Positions 14,268 to 50,204 are shown, counted from the first letter of the stretch. The stretch is DNA of 64,000 nt from an uncultured cyanobacterium (GCA_963744145.1 CAVUSO010000001.1:2816001-2880000), one strand, 5' to 3'. Program-made: numbers and translations. Notes: generated from the letters alone by a model not told the origin.

Positions 14268-17200
14268 GTGCCTACCAATATGGACAGTATTATAGACTAC
14301 CAACTAACTGAAAAAATCTACGAAAGTCCTAATTCAATAGTTTATCGAGGCACTGACCAACTCAATAAACAACCAATTATTCTGAAAATTCTTCAGGAAA
14401 ATTACCCTACTCCATCAGAACTAATCCGATATAAACAGGAATATGAAATTACTCGTTGTTTCCATGCCGATCGCATTATTAAAACCTCCGGATTACAGCG
14501 ATATAAGAATAGTTTAATCATCATTTTAGAGGACTTTGGTGGTAAATCTTTAGACCGATTAATATCCGAATACCAGTTTAGCTTAGAAGAAACTCTCACT
14601 ATTGCTATTAAGATTACAGAGGGTTTAGTTGCGATTCATTCTGCTAACATTATCCACAAAGATATTAACCCTAGCAATATAGTCTATAATCCAGAAACTG
14701 GACAACTGAAAATTATTGATTTTGGAATTTCTACCCGTTTATCCCAGGAAAATCAGACAATTAATCATATCAATCAATTAGAAGGAACCTTAGCTTATAT
14801 TGCGCCAGAGCAAACTGGTAGAATGAACCGAGGAATAGATTACCGTAGTGATTTTTATGCTCTGGGTGTCACATTCTATCAAATATTGACCCATCAATTA
14901 CCGTTTCCAACCCATGACCCGATGGAATTAGTCCATTGTCAGATCGCGCAACATCCAAAAAGACCTGATGAACTAATCTCGTCAATTCCCTTAACATTAT
15001 CCAATATCGTCATCAAATTGTTAGCTAAAACTCCAGAGGAACGATACCAAAGTGCTTGGGGAATTAAAGCTGATTTAGAAACCTGTCTGCACCAATTAAA
15101 AACTTTCGGAGAAATTTCTCAATTTTCTTTAGGAAACCAGGATATTTCCAATAAGTTTCATATTTCTCAAAAACTCTACGGTCGAGAACAGGAAATCACT
15201 CAACTATTAAATTCCTTTAAACGAGTTAGTCAAGGTACTACAGAGATGATGCTGGTTTCTGGTTATTCAGGAATCGGTAAATCTGTTTTGGTCAATGAAA
15301 TTCACAAACCGATTACTAAACAACGAGGATATTTTATTAATGGCAAATTTGACCAGTTGCAGAGGGATATTCCCTATGCAGCAATTACTCAGGCTTTTCA
15401 AGATCTAATTCGTCAACTTCTGAGTGAACCGGAATCAATCCTAGAAACTTGGAAAGAGAAAATATTATCAGCATTGGGGAATAATGGTCAAATTATCATT
15501 GATATTATCCCTGGTCTGGAAAAAATTATCGGTAAACAGCCGGAAGTTGAACAACTAGGAGCAAAAGAAACTCAAAATCGGTTCAAATTATTATTTGAAA
15601 AATTTATCGGCGTTTTTAGTCAAAAAGAACACCCCTTAGTTATCTTCCTCGATGATTTACAGTGGGCAAATCTACCATCTTTAAATTTAATTGAGGGATT
15701 AATAACTAATGCTAATCAGCAATATTTATTGATGATCGGAGCATATCGCGATAATGAAGTTAGTCCTGTTCATCCTTTAATGCACACCTTAGCACAACTT
15801 AGAAAGGTAGAAGCTACAGTCAATCAAATTATCCTACAACCATTAAAAATCAGCCAGATTAACTTATTAATTGCTGATACCTTAAGTTGCTCAATAGAAG
15901 ATGCAAAACCTTTAGCAGAGCTAGTAGCCAAAAAAACTGGTGGTAATCCTTTTTTTGTCAACCAATTACTCCAAACATTGTACCAAGAAAACCTCTTAGT
16001 ATTTAATCCGCCACAATTTTTAATAGCTCAGGGAGAAAATAAAGAGAAATTTTGGCAGTGGGATATTGACCAAATTGAAAAAATCGGCATAACTGATAAT
16101 GTAGTTGATTTAATGGTTAGGAAAATTGGAAAGCTGGATGAAAACACCCAGAATATTTTAAAATTAGCTGCTTGTATTGGCAACCAATTTAATTTAGAAA
16201 TTCTTGCTGTTGTTAATCGAAAATCTCAAATATTTACTGCTCAAGAACTACAACCAGCACTTGCTGAAGGATTGATTGTTCCCCTAAATAATGACTATAA
16301 ATTACCCTTGCTATGGAGTCAGGAGGAAATATCAAGTGAAAGCTCATCTGTTTTTATTCCCAAATATCCTGAGTCTATTCCCTATAAATTTTTACATGAC
16401 CGAGTCCAGCAAGCTGCTTATATTCTCATTAGAGAAGAAGAGAAAAAAGTTGTTCATCTGCAAATAGGTCGTCTGCTACTGAAAAATACTCAAGCAGATA
16501 AATTAGAAGAAAATCTTTTTCAAATTACTAATCAACTTAACGAAGGAGCAGAGTTAACTACTGACCAATTAGAGCGAGATGAGTTAGCTATATTAAATCT
16601 TAAAGCTGGTAAAAAATCTAAAGCATCAACCGCCTATAAACCAGCTCTCAGATATTTGGAAACTGGCTTAAGTCTATTAGCATTTAATAGCTGGAATGAC
16701 CAATATAAATTGACCTGGGAATTACAGATAGAGACTTTAGAACTGCTTTACTTAAATACTAAATTTAAGGAATTTGAAGAGCGAGCAGAAATGCTGCTGG
16801 AACAAGCAAAAGAGATCCTTGATCAAGCTAAGGTAACTCAGTTAAAAATAATATACTGTTATACAATATTTAAGCCTGATCAGGCAATAGATATCGCCCT
16901 TAAAGCTGTCCTAGAACTGGGAATAAATATCTCTCAGGAATCCAGTGACATCGAAAAGAGAATTGAGCAACAACAAGAATTTATTCTATCATTTTTGCAA
17001 TCAAAAAAGATTGAGGATTTAGCTGATTTACCGCTCATGACCGATCAAACTAAAATAGCTGCAACCTCAATCTTACACCGGATTCTTACAGCTACAAATA
17101 CAACAAATTTTTCTTTATATATTGAGGTAATGTTTACCATACTTAATCTCTATATCAGCTCTGGAAATTCTCCTAACGCAGCTTGTATATATGCTACTTA

Positions 17201-20200
17201 TGGAGCGATTTTGTGTACTGTAAAAAAATATATTAATTATGGTAATCAATTTGGAAAACTGTCTTTCAAGCTACTAGAAAAATTTAATACTCCTAAATTA
17301 GAGCCTGTGATTATACATTTATATTATGGAGGTATTTGGTTTTGGCAAGAACATCTCAGGAATATCGTTGCACATAATCACTTAATACATGGATGGAAAA
17401 CCGGGATAGATGCAGGAGAAAATGAATATACTTCTTATCTAGCCCTAAGTTATTGCTTAATCAAGTTTTTCGGTGGATATGATTTGGCAGATGTTGAACA
17501 AGATGTAAAAAAATATTCTAATTTTATCAAAAATTTAAACCAACAATATTCTCTATATGCTATAGAAACAATTGATAAAATAGTAACTAATTTCTTGATG
17601 ATAAACAAGGAAAAAGGTTTAATTATTGGTAATTCTAGAGAAGAGGAGGAAACATATTTAAAGATTTGGAATCAAGCTAATAACGTCTGGCTAATGTTTT
17701 TTGTATTTTTTGGTAAAACAATTTATTTTTATTATTTTAAAGATTATATTAATGCTTATGCTAACAGAATTAATGCCGAAAAACATATCCAAGCTATTGG
17801 CTCCTATTTAATAATGCCCCAGCATAATTTCTATTCATCCCTTTCTGATCTTGCTTATTATAATTATTGTGATGGAAAAAGGCAAAAAGAATTAATTGAT
17901 CAAGTAGACAGAAATCAGGAAAGTATGAAAATATGGGCTAACTATTGTCCAGCAAATTTTCAACATAAATACGATTTGGTTGCGGCTGAAAAAGCCCGAA
18001 TTTTAAACCAAAATTGGCAAGCTGAAGACCTTTATGAAAGAGCAATTCAAGGTGCTAAACAATATCAATTTATTCAAGAAGAAGCTCTAGCTTATGAACG
18101 AGCAGCAGAATTTTACTTTTCTATTGACCGAAAAGAAATTGGTCAGTTATATCTGAGAAATTCCCACCATTGTTACACTAGCTGGGGTGCTAAAGCCAAA
18201 ATTAAACAATTGGAGGACGAATATCCACAATATTTTGTAGGAGTAACCAACTCAGAGACAACTAAAAATCTTTCTACGACGATCTCTATTCCTGGTAATG
18301 ATGGAAAATTCCTCGATTTAACGACCGTCATTAAAGCATCCCAAGCTCTAACTGGGGAAATTATGCTCGATAAATTGCTAGCAACCTTGATGAAAACCAT
18401 GATCGAGAATGCAGCTGCTCAAAAAGGTTTTCTGCTGTTACCATCCCAAACTGATCCTGATCACGAAGATTATCAGTGGGCGATCGCAGCGATCGCGACA
18501 GTTAATCCTAATGAGGTGACTACACTACAATCTATTCCCATCGATACAATAGATCCTTCCACCCAAACCCCGTTCCTCTCAACTACAATCATCAATTATG
18601 TGATTAACAGTCAAGAAAATGTAGTTCTTCATGATGCTACCAATCAGGGACAATTTACTCGCGATCGCTATATTATTACCACCCAACCCAAATCTATTCT
18701 CTGCACTCCTCTACTCAATCAAGGAAAACTGAGTGCTATTTTATATTTAGAAAATAACCTCACCACCGAAGCATTTACACCCGAGCGAATTGAAGTTTTA
18801 AATATCCTTTGTAGCCAAGCCGTTATTTCGATTAAGAATGCCCAATATTATCAACAATTAACCGCATTAAATGTAAATTTGCAAGCTGAAATTATTGAAC
18901 GTCAAAAAGCAGAAGATGCCTTAGCTGAGTCCAACCGCAACCTAGAAATTAAAGTCGAAGAACGAACAGTTGAACTCAAGGAAGCAAAGGAAATTGCCGA
19001 TGATGCTAATCGAGCCAAAAGCGAATTTTTATCGAACATGAGTCATGAACTAAGAACTCCTCTCAATGGGATTTTAGGATATGCTCAAATCCTCCAACGC
19101 TCAAAAATAATCCCAGCAGAAGAACTACACCAGATTAACGTTATTCACCAGTGTGGTTCCCATTTATTAACCCTCATAGACGACATTTTAGATTTAGCCA
19201 AAATTGAAGCTCGAAAAATGGAACTCATGCCAACCGATTTTGATTTTTCTAATTTTTTGCAAGGAATAGCAGAAATTGGCAAAATTAGAGCTGAACAAAA
19301 AGGGATTTCTTTCATTTTTCAAACTACATCAGAACTACCTCAAGGCATCAATACTGATCAGAAAAGATTACGACAAGTGCTAATTAACTTAATCAGTAAT
19401 GCGATTAAATTTACTGACATCGGTGGAGTAATTTTTAAAGTTGAAAGAATTAGGACTGAACAAAAATTAATCCCATCTCCAAGCTCGAAAATTCGGTTTC
19501 AAATTGAGGATACTGGAATTGGCATGAGTCCGGAGCAATTAGAAAAGATATTTTTACCTTTTGAACAGGTGAGTGATCAGCAACGAAAAATAGAAGGAAC
19601 TGGACTAGGATTGACAATTAGTCAAAAAATTGCGGAAATAATGGGTGGTACAATTAAGGTGAAAAGTCAGTTAGATCAAGGGAGTGTTTTTTGGCTAGAT
19701 TTAGATTTGTCTGAAGTCCAGGGATGGAACCAAACAGCCATCACCTGGTCTCAAAGACAGATAATTAGCTTTAAAGGGACTAGACGGAAAATTCTAGTCG
19801 TCGATGACCGATGGGAGAATCGCTCTATGATGATTAATTTACTCAAACCAATTGGCTTTGAAATTGCTGAAGCAACGAACGGTCAGGAGGGTTTAGCCCA
19901 AACCCAAGGATTTCAGCCAGATTTAATTATCCTTGACTTGCTGATGCCCGTCCTAGATGGTTTTGAGATGATTCGACAATTGAGACGCTCCGTTGAATTC
20001 AAGCAGGTGCTGATCATTGCTTCCTCTGCTAGTGTCTACGCAAGCGATCGCGATCAAAGTCTAGCAGTAGGAGCCAATGATTTTCTTTCCAAACCAGTCC
20101 AGATCGATGAACTATTCAAGCAACTACAGAAACATTTGCAAATTGAGTGGGTTTACGAAGAAGTAGCAAAATCTAGCTTGCTCGCTTCCCCCCTAAGATG

Positions 20201-20423
20201 TAATAATGCTCTCATCATACCTCCCATAGAAGAGCTTACTATGTTATTTAATCTAGCCAAAAGAGGACGCATTAAAGGAATTTTGGAGCAAGCCGATAAA
20301 ATTGAACAAGTAGATGAAAGCTTTGCTTTATTTACTGAGCGGATTCGTCAGTTAGCTAAAGGATTTAAACTACCTGAGCTTCAGGAATTTATTAAACAAT
20401 CTATAAACAACCTTAATGGTTGA
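14268..20423 (+). CDS. Hybrid Ser/Thr kinase - AAA ATPase - GAF - histidine kinase - receiver protein
   Basis: HKDINPSN/DFG kinase motifs, GYSGIGKS Walker A, LDDLQW, GAF (YLENNL), H-box MSHELRTPLN, N/G boxes, REC (LVVDD...ILDLLMP). Confidence 0.92.
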   Translation: MPTNMDSIIDYQLTEKIYESPNSIVYRGTDQLNKQPIILKILQENYPTPSELIRYKQEYEITRCFHADRIIKTSGLQRYKNSLIIILEDFGGKSLDRLISEYQFSLEETLTIAIKITEGLVAIHSANIIHKDINPSNIVYNPETGQLKIIDFGISTRLSQENQTINHINQLEGTLAYIAPEQTGRMNRGIDYRSDFYALGVTFYQILTHQLPFPTHDPMELVHCQIAQHPKRPDELISSIPLTLSNIVIKLLAKTPEERYQSAWGIKADLETCLHQLKTFGEISQFSLGNQDISNKFHISQKLYGREQEITQLLNSFKRVSQGTTEMMLVSGYSGIGKSVLVNEIHKPITKQRGYFINGKFDQLQRDIPYAAITQAFQDLIRQLLSEPESILETWKEKILSALGNNGQIIIDIIPGLEKIIGKQPEVEQLGAKETQNRFKLLFEKFIGVFSQKEHPLVIFLDDLQWANLPSLNLIEGLITNANQQYLLMIGAYRDNEVSPVHPLMHTLAQLRKVEATVNQIILQPLKISQINLLIADTLSCSIEDAKPLAELVAKKTGGNPFFVNQLLQTLYQENLLVFNPPQFLIAQGENKEKFWQWDIDQIEKIGITDNVVDLMVRKIGKLDENTQNILKLAACIGNQFNLEILAVVNRKSQIFTAQELQPALAEGLIVPLNNDYKLPLLWSQEEISSESSSVFIPKYPESIPYKFLHDRVQQAAYILIREEEKKVVHLQIGRLLLKNTQADKLEENLFQITNQLNEGAELTTDQLERDELAILNLKAGKKSKASTAYKPALRYLETGLSLLAFNSWNDQYKLTWELQIETLELLYLNTKFKEFEERAEMLLEQAKEILDQAKVTQLKIIYCYTIFKPDQAIDIALKAVLELGINISQESSDIEKRIEQQQEFILSFLQSKKIEDLADLPLMTDQTKIAATSILHRILTATNTTNFSLYIEVMFTILNLYISSGNSPNAACIYATYGAILCTVKKYINYGNQFGKLSFKLLEKFNTPKLEPVIIHLYYGGIWFWQEHLRNIVAHNHLIHGWKTGIDAGENEYTSYLALSYCLIKFFGGYDLADVEQDVKKYSNFIKNLNQQYSLYAIETIDKIVTNFLMINKEKGLIIGNSREEEETYLKIWNQANNVWLMFFVFFGKTIYFYYFKDYINAYANRINAEKHIQAIGSYLIMPQHNFYSSLSDLAYYNYCDGKRQKELIDQVDRNQESMKIWANYCPANFQHKYDLVAAEKARILNQNWQAEDLYERAIQGAKQYQFIQEEALAYERAAEFYFSIDRKEIGQLYLRNSHHCYTSWGAKAKIKQLEDEYPQYFVGVTNSETTKNLSTTISIPGNDGKFLDLTTVIKASQALTGEIMLDKLLATLMKTMIENAAAQKGFLLLPSQTDPDHEDYQWAIAAIATVNPNEVTTLQSIPIDTIDPSTQTPFLSTTIINYVINSQENVVLHDATNQGQFTRDRYIITTQPKSILCTPLLNQGKLSAILYLENNLTTEAFTPERIEVLNILCSQAVISIKNAQYYQQLTALNVNLQAEIIERQKAEDALAESNRNLEIKVEERTVELKEAKEIADDANRAKSEFLSNMSHELRTPLNGILGYAQILQRSKIIPAEELHQINVIHQCGSHLLTLIDDILDLAKIEARKMELMPTDFDFSNFLQGIAEIGKIRAEQKGISFIFQTTSELPQGINTDQKRLRQVLINLISNAIKFTDIGGVIFKVERIRTEQKLIPSPSSKIRFQIEDTGIGMSPEQLEKIFLPFEQVSDQQRKIEGTGLGLTISQKIAEIMGGTIKVKSQLDQGSVFWLDLDLSEVQGWNQTAITWSQRQIISFKGTRRKILVVDDRWENRSMMINLLKPIGFEIAEATNGQEGLAQTQGFQPDLIILDLLMPVLDGFEMIRQLRRSVEFKQVLIIASSASVYASDRDQSLAVGANDFLSKPVQIDELFKQLQKHLQIEWVYEEVAKSSLLASPLRCNNALIIPPIEELTMLFNLAKRGRIKGILEQADKIEQVDESFALFTERIRQLAKGFKLPELQEFIKQSINNLNG

Positions 20424-21441
20424 AAATCATATGCTCGACAGCCCAAATAATGCCCTAATTTTAATTATTGATGATAATCCAAACAATTTGGAAGTTATAT
20501 TTAATATTTTAACTCAATCTGGCTTTGAAATTGCTGTAGCTGTTAGCGGTGAAAGTGCAATTGAACAGATCAAAGAAGAATTACCAGACCTGATTTTATT
20601 GGATGTGCTAATGTCAGGAATTGATGGATTTGAAACCTGTAAACTTCTCAAGTCAGATCCATTGACTCAGGACATTCCCATCATTTTTATGACTGTTCTT
20701 ACCGACCCGATCAGCAGAGTTAAAGGTCTGTCTTTGGGTGCTGTGGATTACATCACTAAACCTTTCTCAGAAGAAGAAGTTTTAGCCCGGATCAAGGTGC
20801 ATTTAAAGCTAAGATTTTTCATGAAAAGCCTAGCCGAAAAAAATCTGCGCCTCAATGAAGAAATCACTAAGTGTCAAATTGTAGAAACAGCTCTTCAAAC
20901 AGCTCTTCAGGAGTTAGAAAAATTTGCTGCTTTAGATGGTTTAACTCAAGTAGCAAATCGTCGTCGATTTGATCAATATCTTGCTCAAAAATGGTATCAA
21001 ATGGAGCAAGAGCAGAAACCTTTATCCTTAATTTTAGCCGATGTAGATGATTTTAAACGCTATAACGATACCTATGGTCATTTAGCTGGTGATGATTGTT
21101 TGCGTACTATTGCCCAATCCATTAGTCTTACCCTCAAATGTCCTGATCATTTGGTAGCTCGTTTTGGTGGAGAAGAATTTGCCATAATTCTTCCTGACAC
21201 TCATTCCCAAGGAGCTGTTTCTGTTGCAGAAATGATTCGCACAAATGTGCAAAAACTTCAAATTATTCATAGTCAATCATCCGTGAGCGAATATATTAGT
21301 TTGAGTCTGGGTGTTGCTAGTTTGTTTCCTAGTTCTGAAAACTCCCCTCGTATCCTCATTAATTTAGCCGATCGCGCTCTTTATACTGCTAAAAGAAAGG
21401 GAAAAAATCTGGTGCATCTATTCACCTCATTAACCGATTGA
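20416..21441 (+). CDS. Response-regulator diguanylate cyclase (REC-GGDEF)
   Basis: LIIDD...LLDVLM receiver; DGLTQVANRR, DVDDFKRYND, RFGGEEF; 8-bp overlap with the kinase gene. Confidence 0.92.
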   Translation: MVENHMLDSPNNALILIIDDNPNNLEVIFNILTQSGFEIAVAVSGESAIEQIKEELPDLILLDVLMSGIDGFETCKLLKSDPLTQDIPIIFMTVLTDPISRVKGLSLGAVDYITKPFSEEEVLARIKVHLKLRFFMKSLAEKNLRLNEEITKCQIVETALQTALQELEKFAALDGLTQVANRRRFDQYLAQKWYQMEQEQKPLSLILADVDDFKRYNDTYGHLAGDDCLRTIAQSISLTLKCPDHLVARFGGEEFAIILPDTHSQGAVSVAEMIRTNVQKLQIIHSQSSVSEYISLSLGVASLFPSSENSPRILINLADRALYTAKRKGKNLVHLFTSLTD

Positions 21442-32190: not shown

Positions 32191-32889
32191 ATGGCTAAAT
32201 CTTCCTTCAGAGCCAAACGTTTCTGGTCTCAACCTGCAACTCGTCTCATCTTAACAATCTTGGTTGCGTTGGGAGTGTACTATTTCTTACCTATATCTTG
32301 GTGGGAAATTCGCTTGTTGCTAGGTTTTAACCTGGGGTTAATTGTGCATTTGGGACTCTTGGTAAATTTACTCTGGCACTTCACACCAGAACAAACTTAC
32401 CGTCATGCTCAAAAAGGAAAACCGAGCAATATCGCATTGCTGTTCATAGTAGTGCTGTTCTCATTTATTAGTCTAATTGCGATCGCACTAATGTTAGATG
32501 ATTCTAAAAACTCGCCCCCCGCGATCACCAATATCCACATGGGTCTTTCTTCAATTGCGATTTTCCTATCCTGGCTGCTGGTCAACATCTACTATTCCAT
32601 TCATTATGCCTATATTTATTATGATGAAGTGAATGAGGAGGACAAAAAACAAATCGGGGATCAAACTTATCCTCATTTGCAAGGTCTAGAGTTTCCCCAG
32701 GAAGAACTACCATCCTACCGCGATTTCCTCTATTATTCATTTACGATCGCCATGTGCTATCAAACTTCCGACATCTCCATCATCAGTTCCCAAATGCGAG
32801 ATATCAGCCTGTTGCACGCTATTTTCTCTTTCATTTTTGTGGCAGTGATTTTGGGTCTAGTAGTTAACATCGTCACCAATCTTGTTTAG
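32191..32889 (+). CDS. DUF1345 family membrane protein
   Basis: Several TM helices; HYAYIYY, GLEFP, YRDFLYYSFTIAMCYQTSD. Confidence 0.85.
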   Translation: MAKSSFRAKRFWSQPATRLILTILVALGVYYFLPISWWEIRLLLGFNLGLIVHLGLLVNLLWHFTPEQTYRHAQKGKPSNIALLFIVVLFSFISLIAIALMLDDSKNSPPAITNIHMGLSSIAIFLSWLLVNIYYSIHYAYIYYDEVNEEDKKQIGDQTYPHLQGLEFPQEELPSYRDFLYYSFTIAMCYQTSDISIISSQMRDISLLHAIFSFIFVAVILGLVVNIVTNLV

Positions 32890-32894
32890 GTTGA

Positions 32895-35800
32895 TTAGTT
32901 TAATGAGTGATTCTTCTTGGTGCCGATCTGATCGCAAAGACGCCGATCATGCTCGGTAGCACCAGAATCTGGATTGTCCAAATAAGTTTTCAACAAAAAG
33001 CAACCTTGTTCTAGTAGATAGTTAAAATCAAATTCTAAATTCCACAAAATGATCTTACCATCGCTACCAGCAGAGGCCAAAGTTTGACCATCTGGGCTAA
33101 AACTGACATTTTTCACAGAACTAAACATCGGGAGAGTATGTTCTAACTGGCCAGTGGCCGGATTCCAGAGTTTGATGGCCTTGTCCTCACTACCAGAGGC
33201 CAAGGTTTTTCCATCGGGGCTAAAACTGACACTGTAGACCAAACTACCATGTCCAGTGAGAGTCTGGAGTTCTTGGCCTGTAGTTACATCCCAAAGTTTA
33301 ATGGTCTTGTCCCAACTGCCAGAGGCCAAAGTTTGACCATCTGGATGGAAACTCACACTCAGGACTCGATCGCTATGTCCTTTGAAGCTACGGAGTTCCT
33401 TACCTGTATTCACATTCCAGATTTTGATACTGTTGTCCCCACTGCCAGAGGCCAGAGTTTGACCATCTGGGCTAAAACTGACGCTAAAAACCTCATTAGT
33501 ATGCCCAGTCAGAGTCCGGAGTTCCTTACCTGTAGTGACATTCCAGATTTTGATGCTGTTGTCCTCACTACCAGAGGCCAAAGTTTGACCATCCGGGCTA
33601 AAACTAATACTGTAGACCGAGCCAGTATGTCCAGTCAGAGTCCGGAGTAGCTGGCCGGTGGTCACATCCCAAAGTTTAATGCTGTTATCCTTACTACCAG
33701 AGGCCAAGGTTTTTCCATCCGGGCTGAACCTGACGCTAAAAACCACATTAGTATGCCCAGTCAGAGTCCGGAGTACCTGGCTGGTAGTCATATTCCAGAG
33801 TTTAATGCTGTTGTCCCAACTACCAGAGGCCAAGATTTGACCATCCGGGCTAAAACTGACACTATTGACCACATTAGTATGCCCAGTCAGAGTCCGAGGT
33901 TCTATGTTTGTGGTCACATCCCAGAGTTTAATGCTGTTGTCCCCACTACCAGAGGCCAAGATTTGACCATTCGGGCTAAAACTAATGCTATTGATCACAT
34001 TAGTATGCCCAGTTAGAGTTTGGAGTTCTTGGCCGGTGGTCACATCCCAGAGTTTAATGCTGTTGTCCCCACTACCAGAGGCCAAGATTTGACCATCCGG
34101 GCTAAAACTGATACTATTGACCACATTAGTATGCCCAGTCAGAGTTTGGAGTTCTTGGCCGGTGGTCACATTCCAGAGTTTAATGCTGTTGTCCCCACCA
34201 CCAAAGGCCACAGTTTGACCATCCGGGCTAAAACTGATGCTATACACATCACTACTATACCTAGTGAGATTCCGAAGGAGCTGGCCAGTGGTTACATCCC
34301 AAAGTTTGACGCTGTGATCCTCACTACCAGATGCTACGGTTTTCCCATCCGGGCTGAATCTGATGCTCCAGACCGAACTACTATGTCCAGTGAGAGTCCG
34401 AAGGATCTGACCGGTATTCACATCCCAGAGTTTGATATTGTTGTCCTTACTGCCAGAAGCCAAGGTTTTTCCATCGGGACTGAAACTGATACTATAAACA
34501 TCCCCAGTATGTCCAGTGAGAGTCCGAAGTTCCTTACCTGTAGTCACATCCCAGAGTTTAATGCTGTTGTCCCCACTACCAGAGGCCAAGATTTGACCAT
34601 TGGGGCTGAACCTGACACTCCAGACCACCCCAGTATGTCCCAAGAGAGTCTGGAGTTCCTTACCTGTAGTCACATCCCAGAGCTTGATGGTCTGATCCCG
34701 ACTACCAGTCACCAAGATTTTCCCATTCGGGCTAAAATTGACGCTATTCACTTCCAGGCTATGTTTGACCAAACGGTTACGTTCCCTAACATTAAAAACC
34801 GATTGTTCCAACGCTTCTGTTACAGTTGGCTCAGTGCCATGTTCTTTTTTCAAGCCATTTCCAGCCTCAAGTGCAGCAACTAAAGCATCAATTTTTTTAC
34901 CATTCTTCGATAGCAATAAAGAAGATTTTGCCTCAGCTTTAATTTCATTAAGTTTGGCTTCTTGGCGACTAATTTCGGCTTCAATGTTTTTATACACAGC
35001 AATGAGAGTCGCGATCGCGGCGATCGCTGCAACTACTGTCATTACTACCAACAGCAATCTTAACCGGATCAGCCGCTGTTTTTCCTGTTCAGCTGCCGCC
35101 TCGATCGCCTGATGGCTAGATTCAATAAACTTGGTTTGTACTTCTGTGACGAAGGGTTGCTTTTTACCTTGGGTTGCTTCCTGGAACCAGTGGTCAGCGA
35201 TCGCGAATTCACTTCCCCGCAGGAGTAAATCACTACTCTGATCCTGGTTTTGCCATTCGATCGCCCGACGCAGCCATTTAGTATGATTTTGGATATATTC
35301 CCGGTCTGTATCTAGGGTTCTGAGCAATTGATTAATATTGGCATAAAGATCACCTTCCTTTTGAGTAAAATCGATCCACTGTACTTTAGCCAACTCTGGA
35401 TGCAACTGGGTTTTATCCACCTCTTGATACAAGACCGTAATAAAACGTTTGTTAAGTTTGGCTGCATATTCCACTTCATCAGTACAATCGGGAGAATTGA
35501 TTGAGTGCGGTGACAGAATAAACAAAAAGTTGTCAGCACTTTCAATTCCCTGATAAACTTCCTGCTGAAAATCTACTCCTGAAGCAATACTCTCTTGCTC
35601 AAACCAAGTAGTTTTTCCCCTGGTTTGCAATTCATCATTCAACGAACGGACTAGATCTGCATCAGCTTTTGAGTAGGAGATAAATACATCAAGGGATACG
35701 GCTGGTGGTTGACGCAAACTTTCATTAATAAATGCTTTTTGCAAGGTAGTCGGTTGATGCTGAGTTCTCAGTTCCGCTCCCTTCAACCAAACTTCAGCAT

Positions 35801-37094
35801 GGCGCAAATTATAGCCCCGCAGTAAAATACTGGGATTGTGGTTCTGTCGCTCCCACTTCAGCGCTTTACTTAACAATTGCTTATGCTCTTCGTAATAGCT
35901 AGCTTCCTCCTGTAAAGCATTGAGCAACTGATCCAAATCCTGACGGAAGTCTGATTCAGTCTGATTATTGGTGAAGTCGATGAATTGTAAGGCTCGAATC
36001 ACTGGCGGCACTTGCTCCAAGTCAGTTGATGATATGATCAGAGGAATAATCCTTTTATGGAGACCCAGAGCATAGTTAATCTCTTGCTGACAATAATGGG
36101 ATGTCAAAGCATCGGTCGAGATTAAATAGACTATGTTATCCGCCTGTTCAATCCCCCGATTAATTGCCTCCTCAAATATTTCTCCAGTTTGAATATCCGT
36201 CTTATTTGTCCAAACCGTAATCCCTTCTCTGACCAATACCTCGCGAATTTTGGCCATAAAAGCGCTGTCCACTTCCGCATAGGAGAGAAACACCTGAGTC
36301 ATCAAGTTATTGGCATTTTTGATGCTCTCACCAATTAACTCACATTGCAGTAAAGTCGGTTCACAGGGCGGTTGTTCTTCCTGAAACCGCTGTTTTAACC
36401 ATAATTCTGCCGCTTTTCGTTGTTCTCCAGTCAATAGATAGCGGGTTTTTTTCTGTTGATTTTCCCACTTGATCGCTCGATTTAATAAAAATGTATGTTG
36501 CCGCACATAGTCCTGATGACGATGAAATATTTCGATTAATCCGCTCAATCCTTTCTCAAAATCATTAATCCCTTCTTGAACATAGATCCAGTTGATTTTG
36601 CTAATGATCGGGTGCATATTCAGGAAACTGGAATGTAATCCCTTTTCCTGATAAGTCTGCCATTCTGACTCTGATTTGTCAGGGTGACGCTGTTGCCAAG
36701 TCTCTTGGCTGATTTGTCCGACGTGCAGAAGTGGAATAATTCGTTTTTTTAGTTGGATGGCTAGTTCAATTTCTTTCCGACAATAGGGAGAGTTAACAGA
36801 ATGAGGCGAAATCAGAAATAGAAAGTTATCGGCTTTAGTGATCCCATCATCTATTTGATTTTGGTAATCAACCCCCAAAGGAATATCATTAAAATCAAAC
36901 CACACTTTGAACTCAGCCTGATTGAGTCGGTCTTGAAGTTGAGCAGCAAAGGCTTTACTATCAGCTCGACCATAGGAAATAAAAGCATCATAGAGACGTT
37001 CCGATGGCAGGTCTGAGGGCAAAGTCGCAGGGGGTGGAGTTGAAACAGTAGTCAAAAGATTATTGTTTGGGGGTTGAGATACATCCATCGCCAA
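32895..37094 (-). CDS. Triple TIR - TM - WD40 repeat protein
   Basis: Three TIR starts (YDAFISYGRAD, QVFLSYAEVD, DVFISYSKAD), each with a CxxE(I/V) helix; hydrophobic LLLVVMTVVAAIAAIATLIAVY; ~14 WD40 repeats. ATG at 37088 is an alternative start. Confidence 0.92.
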   Translation of the reverse strand: MAMDVSQPPNNNLLTTVSTPPPATLPSDLPSERLYDAFISYGRADSKAFAAQLQDRLNQAEFKVWFDFNDIPLGVDYQNQIDDGITKADNFLFLISPHSVNSPYCRKEIELAIQLKKRIIPLLHVGQISQETWQQRHPDKSESEWQTYQEKGLHSSFLNMHPIISKINWIYVQEGINDFEKGLSGLIEIFHRHQDYVRQHTFLLNRAIKWENQQKKTRYLLTGEQRKAAELWLKQRFQEEQPPCEPTLLQCELIGESIKNANNLMTQVFLSYAEVDSAFMAKIREVLVREGITVWTNKTDIQTGEIFEEAINRGIEQADNIVYLISTDALTSHYCQQEINYALGLHKRIIPLIISSTDLEQVPPVIRALQFIDFTNNQTESDFRQDLDQLLNALQEEASYYEEHKQLLSKALKWERQNHNPSILLRGYNLRHAEVWLKGAELRTQHQPTTLQKAFINESLRQPPAVSLDVFISYSKADADLVRSLNDELQTRGKTTWFEQESIASGVDFQQEVYQGIESADNFLFILSPHSINSPDCTDEVEYAAKLNKRFITVLYQEVDKTQLHPELAKVQWIDFTQKEGDLYANINQLLRTLDTDREYIQNHTKWLRRAIEWQNQDQSSDLLLRGSEFAIADHWFQEATQGKKQPFVTEVQTKFIESSHQAIEAAAEQEKQRLIRLRLLLVVMTVVAAIAAIATLIAVYKNIEAEISRQEAKLNEIKAEAKSSLLLSKNGKKIDALVAALEAGNGLKKEHGTEPTVTEALEQSVFNVRERNRLVKHSLEVNSVNFSPNGKILVTGSRDQTIKLWDVTTGKELQTLLGHTGVVWSVRFSPNGQILASGSGDNSIKLWDVTTGKELRTLTGHTGDVYSISFSPDGKTLASGSKDNNIKLWDVNTGQILRTLTGHSSSVWSIRFSPDGKTVASGSEDHSVKLWDVTTGQLLRNLTRYSSDVYSISFSPDGQTVAFGGGDNSIKLWNVTTGQELQTLTGHTNVVNSISFSPDGQILASGSGDNSIKLWDVTTGQELQTLTGHTNVINSISFSPNGQILASGSGDNSIKLWDVTTNIEPRTLTGHTNVVNSVSFSPDGQILASGSWDNSIKLWNMTTSQVLRTLTGHTNVVFSVRFSPDGKTLASGSKDNSIKLWDVTTGQLLRTLTGHTGSVYSISFSPDGQTLASGSEDNSIKIWNVTTGKELRTLTGHTNEVFSVSFSPDGQTLASGSGDNSIKIWNVNTGKELRSFKGHSDRVLSVSFHPDGQTLASGSWDKTIKLWDVTTGQELQTLTGHGSLVYSVSFSPDGKTLASGSEDKAIKLWNPATGQLEHTLPMFSSVKNVSFSPDGQTLASAGSDGKIILWNLEFDFNYLLEQGCFLLKTYLDNPDSGATEHDRRLCDQIGTKKNHSLN
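33040..34790 (-). repeat. ~14 highly similar 126-bp WD40-coding repeats
   Basis: Units of type GHT..V.S.SFSPDGQ.LASGS.DNSIKLWDVTTGQELQTLT, near-identical at DNA level. Confidence 0.93.
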
Positions 37095-37295
37095 AAGCTT
37101 TATAGGTTTTATATTAAATTAGACTAGGGATTAGGTAAATAGAGTAACCGCCCATGCTCGAATCTTGATCAGGGTTTGCATAAGTGACACAATGTCGATT
37201 GCCAAGCTAAGGCTGTAATACTTACCATGTCTCAGTTACTAAAATTTTGGTAGTAATAGTTTCACTTTTTAAATTAAGAGTTCTACCCCAATCAG

Positions 37296-38645
37296 ATGGA
37301 AAAATCTTTTCAGATCAAATTCGATCCTGGACAATCGGCAAATGCTGTTATAGTTGAGAATTTCTCAGACTTGCCAAATGTGGTACAGAATTTAGATCTA
37401 CCCAATGCTTGTCCGATCATTGTCCTAGTTGGAGGAGCTAGTGGGATTAGCGATCGCGACTTGATTCTGCTGCGTCAGATGTTTGTGGAAGTTTTGGCTC
37501 CTTGTGTCCAATCTCTGGGAGCAATTGTAGTAGATGGTGGCACCGATGCTGGGATTATGAAATTGATGGGTCATGCCCGCACCCAAATTGGTGGTAGTTT
37601 TCCCTTAATTGGAGTAGCGGCAATTGGCACAGTGGTGTTCCCAGACCATCAACCCGCTAGGGATGACCCCGCTCCATTAGAACCAAACCACAGCCATTTT
37701 CTCTTAGTTCCTGGCTCTAATTGGGGAGACGAATCTCCCTGGCTGGCCCAATTAGCCAGCCAATTATCTCCAGGAAAACCATCCCTAACCATCGTCATCA
37801 ACGGGGGTGAAATTACTTGGCAAGATATATCTCAAAGTATTAAATTAGGTAGACCTGTACTTGTTATTGCTGGAAGTGGGCGCACCGCTGATCAAATAGC
37901 CGCAGCCTTAGCGGGAAAAGATGCCGACCAACGGGCAAAAGATTTAATTTTATGTGGACAAGTAAATTCTATTGACCTGAACAACGGTGGTGCTGCTTTA
38001 GCTAAGGCAATTACAGAGATGTTTTCTCATCAAAATCAGGAGCAGAAGCAAAAAATGGCCAGCAAAAAAGATCCTTATAAAGAATGGTTGAAAGAAGATT
38101 TCGGCAAGATGTTTGAAATGCTGAAACTGGGAGAAGTGCAAACACATTTTTTGCGATCGCGCTGGCTCGATCAAGTTTTGTGGATGGAAGGTAAAGCCGC
38201 TACTGCCAGAAATCGCCACTTCACGCTAAAAGTGATTACTATTCTTGGCGGTGTATTACTTCCCGCGCTAGTAACTTTGAATAACAGCGATAATCCAGAA
38301 GTCAGAGCTTACGTTTATTGGTCTACTTTTATTCTGAGCCTGCTCGTTTCAGCGACTTCCTCCCTTGAAGGGTTTTTTCTTTATGGAGATCAATGGCGCA
38401 ACTATCGTCGTTCAGTCGAATCCTTGAAAACCCAGGGTTGGCAATACTTTCAATTGAGTGGACCTTATATTTCTTATCAAACCCACGAAGAAGCTTTTCA
38501 TGCTTTTGCTGCCCAGGTAGAAGAAGTGATCCAACGGGATGTAGAAGTCTATGCTACTCAAATTGCCCAGTCTCAGAAACCAGGTGACAAGGACAAGGAC
38601 AAGGACAAGGACAAGGATGCCGATCCGCAACAACCAGAAAACTAA
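37296..38645 (+). CDS. TRPM-type SLOG (LSDAT) domain fused to SLATT/DUF4231 2-TM effector
   Basis: LVGGASG, VVDGGTDAGIM, LEPNHSHFLLV...WGDES, INGG, VIAGSGRTAD (SLOG); RWLDQVLWME, two TM helices, WRNYRRSVESLK (DUF4231/SLATT). Confidence 0.85.
   Translation: MEKSFQIKFDPGQSANAVIVENFSDLPNVVQNLDLPNACPIIVLVGGASGISDRDLILLRQMFVEVLAPCVQSLGAIVVDGGTDAGIMKLMGHARTQIGGSFPLIGVAAIGTVVFPDHQPARDDPAPLEPNHSHFLLVPGSNWGDESPWLAQLASQLSPGKPSLTIVINGGEITWQDISQSIKLGRPVLVIAGSGRTADQIAAALAGKDADQRAKDLILCGQVNSIDLNNGGAALAKAITEMFSHQNQEQKQKMASKKDPYKEWLKEDFGKMFEMLKLGEVQTHFLRSRWLDQVLWMEGKAATARNRHFTLKVITILGGVLLPALVTLNNSDNPEVRAYVYWSTFILSLLVSATSSLEGFFLYGDQWRNYRRSVESLKTQGWQYFQLSGPYISYQTHEEAFHAFAAQVEEVIQRDVEVYATQIAQSQKPGDKDKDKDKDKDADPQQPEN
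38586..38618 (+). repeat. (GACAAG)5 microsatellite encoding DKDKDKDKDKD
   Basis: Seen directly in the sequence. Confidence 0.9.
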
Positions 38646-38683
38646 CAGTTTTTAGCCATTTAATGTGAAGTTACATAGATTTA

Positions 38684-38747
38684 GATCCCCCTTAAGAAGG
38701 GGGACTTTAAATTCATGCTCCCCCTTCTTAAGGGGGTTGGGGGGATC
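38684..38747. repeat. Palindromic cyanobacterial REP-like element between convergent genes (possible terminator role)
   Basis: gatcccccttaagaaggggg...cccccttcttaagggggttggggggatc. Confidence 0.7.
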
Positions 38748-38866
38748 AATTCTATCCACCCTCATAAAAAATTAGTATTAGATAAAATCATGCAGCTAAT
38801 TTGTCTATAAAAAACTCCCCAAGATTTAAAAAAATCATGGAGAGATAATCTGAGAACTAATTTTAA

Positions 38867-39985
38867 TTAAGCTGGATTTACCTGAACTTGACGTTGCAGT
38901 AAATTTTGGATTGAGGCTTTTTCGATAATTCCCAGTAATACACCATTATCTTGAATCACCGGAATTAATGGTAGTTGTTTTTGGTCGAGCAGGGTAATTA
39001 CTTCTGATAGAGATTGTTGCGGTTTAACAGTTGTGGTAAATTCCATTAGCTCGGTTAATTCTCTGACTTGAGTTTGCACCCAAAGATTAGTAGAGATCGC
39101 TTTTAAAGACTCAACATTAATCACACCTAAAAGTTGTCCGACTGGATCAATTACTAAGAATTTACTCCCATTATTTTGACCAATAATATAGTTGTTGGCA
39201 AATTCGCGTAAAGATAGATCGGCTGCAACAACTTGACTATTGGGATTAATTGCGTCTGCTGCTGTTAATCCAGATATTTTATCTTGTATGGTTGCATACT
39301 GAGCAGAACGTCCAGCATTTTGCAGCAAAAACCAACCAACTAACATATTCCAGAATTGACCAAAAATTAGCCCAGAGACGATCGCTACCCAACCAAAGAT
39401 TTGACCGACTCGACTGGCAAAAACTACACCTTTATAAGGATTTTTGGTGATTTTCCACACTAGAGCTTTTAAGATATTACCACCATCAAGAGGTAATCCA
39501 GGAATTAAGTTAAATAAAGCTAGTGCTAAGTTGATCGAAGCCATTAAACTCGTGATTGCTGCCCATCTACCTGATATTGGTGTAAATATACCGATACTCA
39601 GGAAGAATATAAATAGCATTAAACTCACTAAAGGTCCGGCGATCGCTACCCAAAACGCATCTCCAGGGGTTTTTGATTCTTTTTCTAAGTTGGCTAAACC
39701 ACCAAATATAAACAAAGTAATCGATTTAACTTGTATCCCTTGTTGGATTGCGACTAAGCTATGACCCAATTCATGGGCGATCACTGAAGCAAATAACAAT
39801 ATCGCAGTGATAAAACCTAACAACCAAGGAAGTGGTAATCCAGGAAACTGTGTTGCTAATCCATTTCCATAGGTAAAAGTTACCAACGCAAGTACAAAAA
39901 ACCAAGAGGGATTGATGTAGAAAGGAATCCCAAATAGATTACCGACGCGAAAACTACCATTCATATTATTACCCCCGATCATCAA
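38867..39985 (-). CDS. Site-2 protease (M50) with CBS domains
   Basis: HELGH, IAGPLVS, FNLIPGLPLDGG; CBS pair at the C-terminus. Confidence 0.93.
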   Translation of the reverse strand: MMIGGNNMNGSFRVGNLFGIPFYINPSWFFVLALVTFTYGNGLATQFPGLPLPWLLGFITAILLFASVIAHELGHSLVAIQQGIQVKSITLFIFGGLANLEKESKTPGDAFWVAIAGPLVSLMLFIFFLSIGIFTPISGRWAAITSLMASINLALALFNLIPGLPLDGGNILKALVWKITKNPYKGVVFASRVGQIFGWVAIVSGLIFGQFWNMLVGWFLLQNAGRSAQYATIQDKISGLTAADAINPNSQVVAADLSLREFANNYIIGQNNGSKFLVIDPVGQLLGVINVESLKAISTNLWVQTQVRELTELMEFTTTVKPQQSLSEVITLLDQKQLPLIPVIQDNGVLLGIIEKASIQNLLQRQVQVNPA

Positions 39986-48674: not shown

Positions 48675-50204
48675 ATGGGACTACCCTGGTACCGAGTACA
48701 TACAGTTGTCTTAAATGACCCAGGTCGTCTGATAGCTGTACACCTGATGCACACTGCTCTCGTCGCAGGTTGGGCTGGTTCTATGGCCCTATATGAATTG
48801 GCCATTTTCGATCCTAGTGATCCGATCCTCAACCCCATGTGGCGTCAGGGAATGTTTGTGATGCCCTTTATGGCTCGTCTTGGGATCACCCAATCTTGGG
48901 GTGGTTGGAGCCTAACTGGCCAACCCGCTGTTGATCCTGGGATTTGGAGCTTTGAAGGTGTTGCCACAGCTCACATTCTCTTGTCTGGTTTGCTGTTCCT
49001 CGCTGCTGTTTGGCACTGGGTTTATTGGGATTTAGAACTCTTCAGAGACCCCCGCACTGGAGAACCAGCACTAGACTTGCCAAATATGTTTGGCATTCAT
49101 TTATTCTTGTCTGGTTTACTCTGTTTTGGCTTCGGTGCTTTTCACTTGACTGGATTATTTGGACCGGGGATGTGGGTTTCTGATCCCTATGGTCTCACCG
49201 GTAGTGTCCAGCCAGTAGCTCCGGCTTGGGGTCCGGAAGGGTTTAACCCCTTTAACCCTGGTGGAATTGTCGCTCACCATATTGCCGCAGGAATTGTCGG
49301 AATTATTGCTGGTATCTTTCATTTAACCGTCAGACCACCAGAAAGGCTCTATCGAGCTTTGCGGATGGGTAACATTGAAACCGTACTATCAAGTAGTATT
49401 GCCGCAGTATTTTTTGCAGCCTTTGTGGTTGCAGGGACAATGTGGTACGGCAGTGCGGCTACACCGATCGAACTATTTGGCCCAACTCGCTATCAGTGGG
49501 ACAGTGGTTATTTCCAAAAGGAAATTGACCGTCGCGTTCAAGCTGATGTAGCTGAAGGTAAGACCTTGAGCGAAGCTTATGGAGCCATTCCCGAAAAACT
49601 GGCTTTCTACGATTATGTAGGTAATAGCCCTGCTAAAGGTGGTTTGTTCCGGGTTGGTCCAATGAATAATGGCGATGGTCTAGCTCAAGATTGGCTCGGT
49701 CATGCTGTATTTAAAGATGCTGAAGGTCGGGAATTGTGGGTACGTCGGCTCCCTAACTTCTTTGAAAACTTCCCTGTGGTCTTGACTGATAAAGATGGGG
49801 TAGTTCGTGCGGATATTCCTTTCCGTCGTGCTGAATCTAAATACAGTTTTGAGCAAGTTGGTGTTACCGTCAGTTTCTATGGTGGTTCCCTGGATGGTCA
49901 GACTTTTGATGACCCAGCCCTAGTGAAGCAGTTCGCTCGTGGTTCTCAATTGGGTGAAATCTTTAAGTTCGATCGCGAAAAATTTGACTCTGATGGTGTG
50001 TTCCGCACCAGTACAAGGGGTTGGTTTACCTTTGGACATGCGGTGTTTGCCTTACTGTTCTTCTTTGGTCATATCTGGCACGGTTCTCGGACGATCTTCC
50101 GTGATGTGTTTGCTGGTATTGATCCCGACTTAGATGAAGATCAAGTCGAGTTTGGTGTGTTCCAAAAATTAGGTGATGCTACCACTCGGAAGAAAGAAGC
50201 TTAA
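48675..50204 (+). CDS. psbB: Photosystem II CP47 chlorophyll-binding protein
   Basis: [19 protein letters not shown]..., full-length 509 aa; AGGAGG RBS upstream. Confidence 0.99.

Follow-up and report, generated by a model that had tools for sequence, protein, structure and literature searches.

A divergent pair of TIR-WD40 and SLOG-SLATT genes

The sequence under study is a 64,000-nt stretch of DNA from an uncultured cyanobacterium (the window, in whose coordinates all positions are given), and the subject of this analysis is a pair of divergent genes within it. The first gene (32895..37094, minus strand) encodes P0001, a protein of 1399 amino acids (aa) with three tandem TIR domains (TIR3), a predicted transmembrane (TM) helix and WD40 repeats; its start codon is TTG, with an ATG two codons further in. 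The second gene (37296..38645, plus strand) encodes P0002, a protein of 449 aa in which a SLOG domain of the TRPM type is joined to a SLATT domain. A spacer of 201 bp (37095-37295) lies between the two genes. The P0001 gene is one of nine paralogous loci in its genome, and the P0002 gene is the sole LSDAT_prok gene of the genome. The pair had been described in an initial annotation as two genes diverging from a spacer of about 200 bp, the one encoding three TIR domains with glutamate at the catalytic position, a single hydrophobic helix and about 14 WD40 repeats, the other a TRPM-type SLOG domain fused to a two-helix SLATT/DUF4231 domain. This description was confirmed throughout: both open reading frames (ORFs) lie exactly where they had been placed, the motifs YCRKEI, YCQQEI and DCTDEV were read in the translation, and the domains and helices were recovered with Pfam and NCBIfam models, matches to TRPM folds and hydropathy.

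The Pfam search of P0001 returned TIR_2 in three stretches (E 2.3e-81, 270.7 bits) and WD40 in 14 stretches (E 2.2e-188). The TIR domains, encoded like the whole gene on the minus strand, occupy aa 36-168 (36591..36989, hmmsearch envelope), aa 267-394 (35913..36296) and aa 469-595 (35310..35690), with the motif glutamate in YCRKEI, YCQQEI and DCTDEV, respectively. These three glutamates share one alignment column, which holds glutamate in 98 of the 101 TIR domains collected. In a sequence search of the PDB, the glutamate of KEI in the first domain was aligned with that of YEL in the bacterial TIR 7uxr, and the same domain also matched the NADases AbTIR and SARM1. The match to the fold model together with a glutamate at the catalytic position suggests that the domains of P0001 are NADase or signalling TIRs. 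ThsB-type models of PADLOC match them as well. It is the third domain that comes nearest (39-40% identity) to the only TIR in the TIR-WD40 genes of three related loci (L002, L003 and L044). After each of the three domains comes a helical segment of about 70 aa in which a W...LL(R/T)G...A..W motif recurs (aa 176-262, 401-466 and 601-679; window 35700-36590); no Pfam family covers this segment, which also precedes the TM helix in single-TIR relatives. A single TM helix is predicted at aa 680-698 (35001..35057; Kyte-Doolittle 2.89), with residues rich in lysine and arginine N-terminal of it, and is followed by about 14 WD40 repeats (Pfam; aa ~776-1360; 33015..34769) which presumably form two propellers.

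In P0002, the Pfam models LSDAT_prok (PF18171; E 4e-72, 242 bits, cut-off 25.4) and DUF4231 (PF14015; aa 292-398, E 1.4e-26, 93.4 bits, cut-off 24.7) were found together with weaker matches to LSDAT_euk (8.5e-12) and SLATT_3 (2.8e-9), and the NCBIfam model SLATT_1 matched with 6.9e-29 and 100.5 bits (cut-off 41). With both domains above curated cut-offs in one protein, P0002 is by its domain matches an ordinary representative of the LSDAT_prok/SLATT family. Domain scores as strong as those of P0001 and P0002 exclude a chance origin. The SLOG domain (aa 39-233; 37410..37994, plus strand) was delimited by Pfam, a PDB sequence search and an AlphaFold2 model compared with Foldseek, and the SLATT/DUF4231 domain (aa 285-420; 38148..38555, plus strand) contains two putative TM helices at aa 310-328 and 344-362 (Kyte-Doolittle). 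By sequence, the SLOG domain matched the TRPM2 chanzyme (4.8e-10) and human TRPM2 (1.1e-7), with glycine-rich loops in common. The AlphaFold2 model had a mean predicted local distance difference test (pLDDT) value of 79.5, and TRPM channels made up 49 of its 50 best Foldseek matches in the PDB. A homodimer prediction with two copies and an alignment scored 0.00 against a mark of 0.42, controls for this value not having been run. In TRPM2, ADP-ribose (ADPR) is bound by the MHR1/2 region, as stated in the available part of PMC13143021.

Comparison of 22 aligned SLOG-SLATT proteins revealed that R95, H132 and E146 are invariant, and that D177, which closes the motif GGEITWQD (aa 170-177, window 37803-37826), is kept in at least 90% of these homologs; in the alignment with the TRPM2 chanzyme, D177 pairs with threonine. 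The position of D177 presumably resembles that of the acidic residue in the LOG enzyme motif PGGxGTxxE. Such residues would suit a SLOG domain that is an enzyme, cleaving or recycling the TIR product and thereby setting a threshold or ending the signal, with the SLATT domain as a mere membrane anchor, and SLOG domains are treated in PMC9503650 either as sensors or as enzymes of N-glycosidic bonds. However, the nearest relatives of this domain in both structure and sequence are the ligand-binding MHR1/2 regions of TRPM channels, and the fusion or tight pairing of SLOG and SLATT fits the coupling of a sensor to an effector. Moreover, SLATT domains are effectors in the cyclic oligonucleotide-based antiphage signalling system (CBASS) and in type VII Thoeris, as far as the available text of a preprint goes (bioRxiv 10.64898/2025.12.03.692087). 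An enzymatic role of the SLOG domain is thus considered highly improbable.

Linkage of TIR and SLOG genes across loci and genomes

Among 8000 candidates scored, 560 relatives of P0002 were found at E <= 1e-3. A search for loci with P0002 as a single sequence gave no relative and was repeated with an alignment as query. With this alignment, 577 relatives were confirmed in species genomes and the 79 best loci, heavily Nostoc, were retained. Metagenomes were scanned with another alignment, built from a fused group about 47% identical; here 80 loci were retained out of 538 relatives. TIR domains were called with a profile of the three TIRs of the window, taken through four iterations over every open frame of the loci thus collected. 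The profile called 52 frames in 39 loci, and all 21 frames that were checked were Pfam TIR_2 above the gathering score. By BLAST, five of the metagenome loci lacked a frame with SLOG; without them, 154 loci remained (79 from genomes and 75 from metagenomes).

A TIR frame was present within 0.5 kb of the SLOG gene in 17 of the 154 loci, within 1.5 kb in 26, within 5 kb in 32 and within 10 kb in 36 (cumulative counts). Expressed per 100 kb of available flank, the density of TIR frames was 13.9 at 0-0.5 kb, 4.7 at 0.5-1.5 kb, 2.5 at 1.5-3 kb, 1.35 at 3-5 kb, 0.24 at 5-7.5 kb and 0.82 at 7.5-10 kb, a 17- to 58-fold drop from the first 0.5 kb to the region beyond 5 kb. This fall-off with distance provides an internal control of the adjacency. 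The arrangement found most often elsewhere is the divergent one (13 of the 32 TIR ORFs within 1.5 kb). Where SLOG and SLATT are split into two genes, these are 3-10 nt apart.

A tree of the SLOG domain was calculated from 150 rows with a quick IQ-TREE run, 26 rows being scored as having a TIR within 1.5 kb, 76 as having none and 48 as unclassifiable. The adjacent-TIR state requires at least 12 changes on this tree, of which four are imposed by branches with good support. The window falls into a clade of four rows together with L002, L044 and L003 (support of 100 in the Shimodaira-Hasegawa-like approximate likelihood ratio test, SH-aLRT), and in all four a fused SLOG-SLATT gene has an adjacent TIR gene. 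In L002, L003 and L044 (74-80% identity) this is a single-TIR-TM-WD40 gene (909-920 aa) that follows SLOG-SLATT immediately in the same orientation; in the window the partner is instead a triple-TIR gene, located upstream and in divergent orientation. The occurrence of a different TIR gene in the partner position argues for function rather than inherited synteny. TIR adjacency was also found in all 7 classifiable rows of a clade of contigs with 66-72% GC and in 4 of 4 rows of another clade, and it recurs in organisms of 36-50% and of 66-72% GC. At L057, a TIR3-CHASE2 gene lies beside split SLOG and SLATT genes, and at L069 and L076 a DUF928 gene stands in between.

The co-occurrence of the two families was also followed at the level of genomes. 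Among 61 related genomes, P0002 was found in 14 and the TIR3 module in 13 (E <= 1e-20); 12 genomes carried both, 2 only a match to the SLATT part, 1 only the TIR module (a genome 86% complete) and 46 neither. In nine of the 12 genomes with both, that of the window included, a single contig carries the two genes within about 7 kb of each other. In a sample of 201 genomes drawn evenly from the phylum, the SLOG part was present in 15 and the TIR module in 11, all 11 TIR genomes being among the 15 with SLOG, and the module was present in 0 of the 186 SLOG-less genomes. Fisher tests of this co-occurrence gave 7e-10 and 3e-15, both values uncorrected for kinship, and three within-family contrasts agree with it. 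In three genomes the TIR and SLOG genes share a contig but are separated by megabases, and in three others they are on different contigs. The nesting of the TIR family in SLOG genomes is therefore independent of adjacency, since the genes are not neighbours in several genomes. Such nesting is what one would expect of TIR proteins that depend on the SLOG-SLATT protein and are able to act on it in trans.

The observed adjacency could in principle result from chance or synteny, with the TIR3-TM-WD40 proteins acting as standalone NAD+-depleting effectors or scaffolds and the SLOG-SLATT protein responding to another nucleotide. This explanation draws on the 118 of 154 SLOG loci without a TIR within 10 kb, many metagenome contigs being too short to tell, on the position of eight of the nine paralogous loci elsewhere in the genome, and on the abundance of TIR genes in cyanobacteria (6-25 TIR_2 domain matches in each of five genomes). 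It is contradicted by the drop of TIR density with distance, by the recurrence of adjacency in several clades of both GC ranges, and by the confinement of the TIR family to genomes with SLOG in the sample of 201; furthermore, by our estimate the odds that one of nine genes would lie within 0.5 kb of a given gene in 7.6 Mb are about 1%. Chance or syntenic adjacency is accordingly held to be very unlikely. A functional link between the TIR and SLOG-SLATT proteins appears well supported by comparative genomics. The initial annotation had supposed that the two proteins cooperate, and the enrichment of adjacency, its recurrence in separate clades and the co-occurrence in genomes bear this out. The linkage across cyanobacteria that it had pointed to as a check was found in part: TIR genes are enriched near SLOG and all 11 genomes with the TIR family in the sample of 201 carry SLOG, but most of the SLOG loci lack a neighbouring TIR.

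Several other genes and arrangements were observed at the SLOG loci. An apparent fusion of SLOG-SLATT with TIR in L101 was dismissed, since the TIR belongs to a different, long open frame immediately downstream. The ORF of 975 aa that precedes SLOG-SLATT at the loci L002 and L044 was at first taken for UvrA, as in the window; this was also rejected, as the ORF encodes an NNH2-NACHT-HEAT protein of the STAND type. It lies directly 5' of the SLOG-SLATT and TIR-WD40 genes on the same strand (L002:4721-7648, and L044), is absent from the window and could be a third component in these two loci. In Nostoc-type loci (L004-L058), the recurrent neighbours of the split SLOG and SLATT genes include the NAD-related genes of a 144-aa NUDIX protein (15 loci), CinA (14 loci) and the NAD(P)HX repair protein YjeF (5 loci), which may reflect either plain synteny or a link with NAD/ADPR metabolism. 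In 12 loci of the Coleofasciculus type (among them L067, L068, L070, L072, L074 and L075), the gene directly 5' of SLOG encodes a product of about 1060 aa that combines SLATT_1 and TPR-S domains. It may be a second membrane effector, its sensor domain being one that the available text of 10.64898/2025.12.03.692087 ties to TIR signalling.

Paralogs, receptor architecture and a proposed pathway

The source genome (G000) is about 7.6-7.7 Mb in size, 96.3% complete and has 28 TIR_2 domain matches. A tblastn search with aa 1-700 of P0001 found nine loci including that of the window, the eight others being 64-81% identical to it. Six paralogs are full-length TIR3-(TM)-WD40 proteins of 1365-1676 aa, with 62-70% identity over their whole length, the one of 1676 aa lacking the TM helix; the other forms comprise one with TIR3 only (775 aa), one of 1085 aa and one split into two ORFs. 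Identity among the paralogs is 67-94% in the TIRs, 60-66% in WD40 and 46-51% in the stalk. All 7 full-length paralogs of this genome are nearer to the window copy (69-84%) than are the copies of other sampled genomes (<=68%), and to judge from these identities the nine TIR3 loci are a lineage-specific expansion. No SLOG or SLATT was found in the 26 neighbour proteins scanned beside the other eight loci, where the neighbours are unrelated; apart from its single LSDAT_prok gene, the genome has another DUF4231 gene, at a distance of about 97 kb from the closest of the paralogs. Nine TIR loci and one SLOG-SLATT gene point to many sensors and one effector rather than to a closed two-gene operon, and the self-contained two-gene system of the initial annotation is on these grounds not supported in that form. 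Defence finders that require adjacency would miss eight of the nine TIR loci, the effector being encoded beside only one.

Further features of the paralogs were recorded. Two of them stand in tandem at G000:C1:71311-78634, where the 1676-aa copy without TM helix is followed by the 775-aa TIR3-only copy, and the paralog at C1:5312472-5315175, divided between two ORFs (387 and 533 aa), is probably a broken gene. Some 150 bp of upstream DNA are almost identical in three paralogs (those at 6.77, 0.071 and 5.31); no upstream motif common to the paralogs was established, the window copy being only weakly similar to two others. The paralog at C1:634150-638607 (L083, G000:C1:627001-646000) has a CHAT-TPR gene (866 aa) and DUF928 on one flank and a 443-aa ORF and DUF5691 on the other. 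TIR3 receptors may thus also belong to CHAT/DUF928-type clusters, and DUF928 was likewise found with TIR3-CHASE2 at L069 and L076. Upstream of the paralog at C1:1633946-1637203, and on the same strand, a giant kinase of 1982 aa is encoded (L086:1317-8811), with a REC-HATPase gene in between.

The architecture of the TIR proteins near SLOG was compared in the 45 TIR frames that could be assessed, namely those that reach at least 60 aa past the last TIR. A hydrophobic helix follows the last TIR in 35 of the 45, usually 15-115 aa downstream, and is often preceded by arginine or lysine. The parts after the helix include three PASTA domains, PASTA with SBP_bac_3, CHASE2, WD40 arrays, TPR-S, and a Ser/Thr kinase followed by a TM helix. 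PASTA, family-3 solute-binding and CHASE2 domains are all well known as modules located outside the cytoplasm, and for CHASE2 this location is given in PMC8195603. A single TM helix, together with partners that carry PASTA, SBP_bac_3 or CHASE2, suggests that the sensor part faces outward. By this domain order, the TIR partners near SLOG look like outside-in receptors, and by analogy the WD40 part of P0001 probably faces outward as well.

The gene pair probably belongs to a TIR second-messenger pathway, in which receptor TIRs would produce an NAD-derived messenger for the SLOG-SLATT protein and several receptors would act in trans on one shared effector. P0001 would be a single-pass membrane receptor with its three TIRs in the cytoplasm and WD40 probably across the membrane. 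A trigger, perhaps a phage, damage to the envelope or a signal sent by neighbouring cells of the filament, would activate it, and the activated tandem TIRs would, by what is known of their family, cleave NAD+ to an ADPR-derived messenger. The TRPM-type SLOG domain of P0002 would bind this messenger, whereupon the two-helix SLATT domain would alter the permeability of the membrane, leading to depolarisation, growth arrest or death. The nine diversified receptor loci probably feed the single SLOG-SLATT effector in trans. TIR NADase and cyclase chemistry and SLATT effectors are described in PMC9503650 and in the available text of 10.64898/2025.12.03.692087.

A narrower explanation, that of the initial annotation, is a classical two-gene, Thoeris-like system of abortive infection, in which the TIR3-WD40 protein would use its propeller to sense a component of a phage and would activate only the SLOG-SLATT protein encoded next to it, so that the infected cell is killed, the eight paralogs being independent. 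The divergent adjacency across 201 bp, the prevalence of divergent pairs elsewhere and the match of ThsB-type PADLOC models to the TIRs would fit such a system, as would the lineage-specific expansion of the paralogs and the faster divergence of WD40 and stalk than of the TIRs, as in immune receptors; moreover, type VII Thoeris (TIR and SLATT) is validated as anti-phage according to the available text of 10.64898/2025.12.03.692087. Nevertheless, the eight paralogous loci have no effector gene alongside, in a genome with one LSDAT SLOG, and the TIR family is strictly nested in SLOG genomes, including those in which the two genes are distant from each other. In addition, the TM helix and the PASTA, SBP and CHASE2 partners point to extracytoplasmic sensing, and the locus lies outside any recognisable defence island. 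A closed pair of this kind is therefore rather unlikely.

The trans-acting pathway with one shared effector may also be part of something broader. In filamentous cyanobacteria and some high-GC bacteria, dispersed single-pass TIR-TM-sensor proteins of Toll-like layout, with WD40, CHASE2, PASTA or solute-binding domains outside the cytoplasm, could form a receptor network that converges, by way of a diffusible messenger derived from NAD, on one SLATT gated by a TRPM-type SLOG, serving as an outside-in pathway for danger or envelope signals, in place of an anti-phage operon of the cytoplasm, and representing a prokaryotic forerunner of the ADPR gating of TRPM2. We put this forward tentatively, as a possibility short of even chances.

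Several observations weigh against a pathway in which the TIR receptors signal to SLOG-SLATT. Given that most SLOG and SLATT loci have no TIR within 10 kb, the effector needs no neighbouring TIR. The negative count is dominated by a Nostoc-type clade of 50 rows, with 43 rows lacking TIR, 7 unclassifiable and 0 TIR-adjacent, and a fused high-GC clade of eight rows (L103-L110) also has no adjacent TIR (5 lacking, 3 unclassifiable). The four SLOG-only genomes lack the P0001 TIR family but have other TIR_2 domains, and the Fisher values overstate the case because related genomes are not independent. As regards topology, the positive-inside signal at the TM helix of P0001 is weak, and the 1676-aa paralog without a TM helix implies that WD40 and TIR can share one compartment. 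PADLOC, which the initial annotation had named as a further check, recognises one side of the pair, its ThsB-type models matching the TIRs, but no model of PADLOC 2023 matches P0002. Finally, no defence island can be recognised around the locus, whose neighbours are housekeeping genes.

The flanking genes are ordinary and include a UvrA-like ORF, DUF1345, an M50 peptidase, MnmG and sugar-nucleotide enzymes. In a PADLOC search of 17 neighbours, the only matches were the UvrA-like ORF (mad3 and other ATPase-type models) and, weakly, a Uma2 protein. Promoter-like sites in 32700-39000 numbered 9 compared with 11.4 +/- 3.5 in shuffled sequences and are thus not above expectation. A terminator-like hairpin (38686..38704, plus strand) with a weak T tail, a consensus match only, lies 41 bp past the SLOG-SLATT stop codon. 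No tRNA genes were found in window 20000-50000. Elsewhere in the window, psbB, a marker of cyanobacteria, is located at 48675-50204, and a 2051-aa Pkinase-AAA_16-GAF-HisKA-HATPase-REC protein, of which the giant kinase near one TIR3 paralog is itself a paralog, is encoded at 14268-21441 together with a subsequent REC-GGDEF gene.

Comparison with known systems

A connection between these domains has been foreseen in general terms. Burroughs and colleagues reportedly predicted in 2015 that prokaryotic LSDAT and SLATT proteins are nucleotide-sensing effectors of conflict systems and that TIR is linked with LSDAT-SLATT, as a generic prediction. In the conflict systems of multicellular bacteria, SLATT genes accompany TIR and other nucleotide effectors, according to the available part of Kaur et al. 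2020 (PMC7159879). A search of the literature on LSDAT found no TIR/LSDAT-SLATT system, and a search pairing the TIR domain with CHASE2 gave a match that concerns caspase-type proteins only.

Among the Thoeris systems, type I consists of the TIR protein ThsB and the SIR2-SLOG effector ThsA, which responds to 3' cyclic ADPR (3'cADPR), and the pair resembles it in having a TIR producer and a SLOG-sensing effector. Several TIR genes may serve one effector in type I. However, the SLOG domain of P0002 is of the LSDAT/TRPM clade and not of the ThsA clade, and its output is a two-helix SLATT domain and not SIR2; accordingly, no PADLOC model of ThsA matched P0002, and no SIR2 domain was found in it with Pfam. 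Type III, in which several TIR proteins are combined with the SLOG effector ThsD, shares with the pair the presence of several TIR domains together with a SLOG effector (available text of 10.64898/2025.12.03.692087), whereas here the TIRs are in tandem in one membrane protein. On P0001 the model Thoeris_type3_ThcB4 reached 101.1 bits, below its cut-off of 220, and P0002 was matched by no effector model of type III. With the generic sense of Thoeris, a TIR gene conserved beside the gene of a ligand-sensing effector, the pair agrees by the enrichment of adjacency and its recurrence in several clades, though a TIR within 10 kb is lacking at 118 of the 154 SLOG loci.

Outside Thoeris, the layout of P0001 is analogous to that of Toll-like receptors, with sensor repeats, a single TM helix and a cytoplasmic TIR. 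The analogy concerns the layout only: here the TIRs are N-terminal, so that the order is reversed, the output is presumed to be enzymatic and not adaptor recruitment, and no homology of the sensors is claimed. TRPM2, the ADPR-gated cation channel of animals, shares with P0002 a SLOG domain that is homologous by sequence and fold and is mounted on a module for membrane permeability. P0002 differs in lacking the six-helix TRP channel, MHR3/4 and NUDT9H and in having a two-helix SLATT domain instead, and the homology is limited to the sensor domain. If the link with the TIR proteins holds, bacterial relatives of the ligand-binding domain of TRPM2 would be tied to makers of ADPR-type messengers, and the origin of ADPR gating would become directly testable. 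Bacterial TIR signalling would then also extend beyond compact anti-phage operons, and the strict nesting of the TIR family in SLOG genomes offers a simple, falsifiable genetic prediction.

The closest known system is Thoeris type VII, a validated combination of TIR with the SLATT effector ThsH in which the signal is canonical cADPR (available text of 10.64898/2025.12.03.692087). Similarly, SLATT is described in PMC9503650 as a membrane effector that is encoded next to TIR and gated by ADPR derivatives. In type VII as in the present locus, a TIR gene adjoins the gene of a SLATT membrane effector, which an ADPR derivative made by TIR is presumed to activate. ThsH, by its description, has no SLOG domain, its ligand pockets lying between protomers, whereas P0002 joins a TRPM-type SLOG domain to SLATT; in NCBIfam only generic SLATT domain models matched P0002. 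Furthermore, the TIR component is here a membrane-anchored triple-TIR WD40 protein of 1399 aa with eight further paralogous loci, and no recognisable defence-island operon is formed. In view of type VII and of the TIR-adjacent SLATT effectors, the undescribed system proposed in the initial annotation does not stand as such: the system is real, but its logic is already known, and it is not categorically new. Three features emerged here that were present in none of the literature searched: the receptor-like TIR-TM-sensor partners, the nine dispersed loci with a single effector gene, and the strict nesting of the TIR family in genomes with SLOG.

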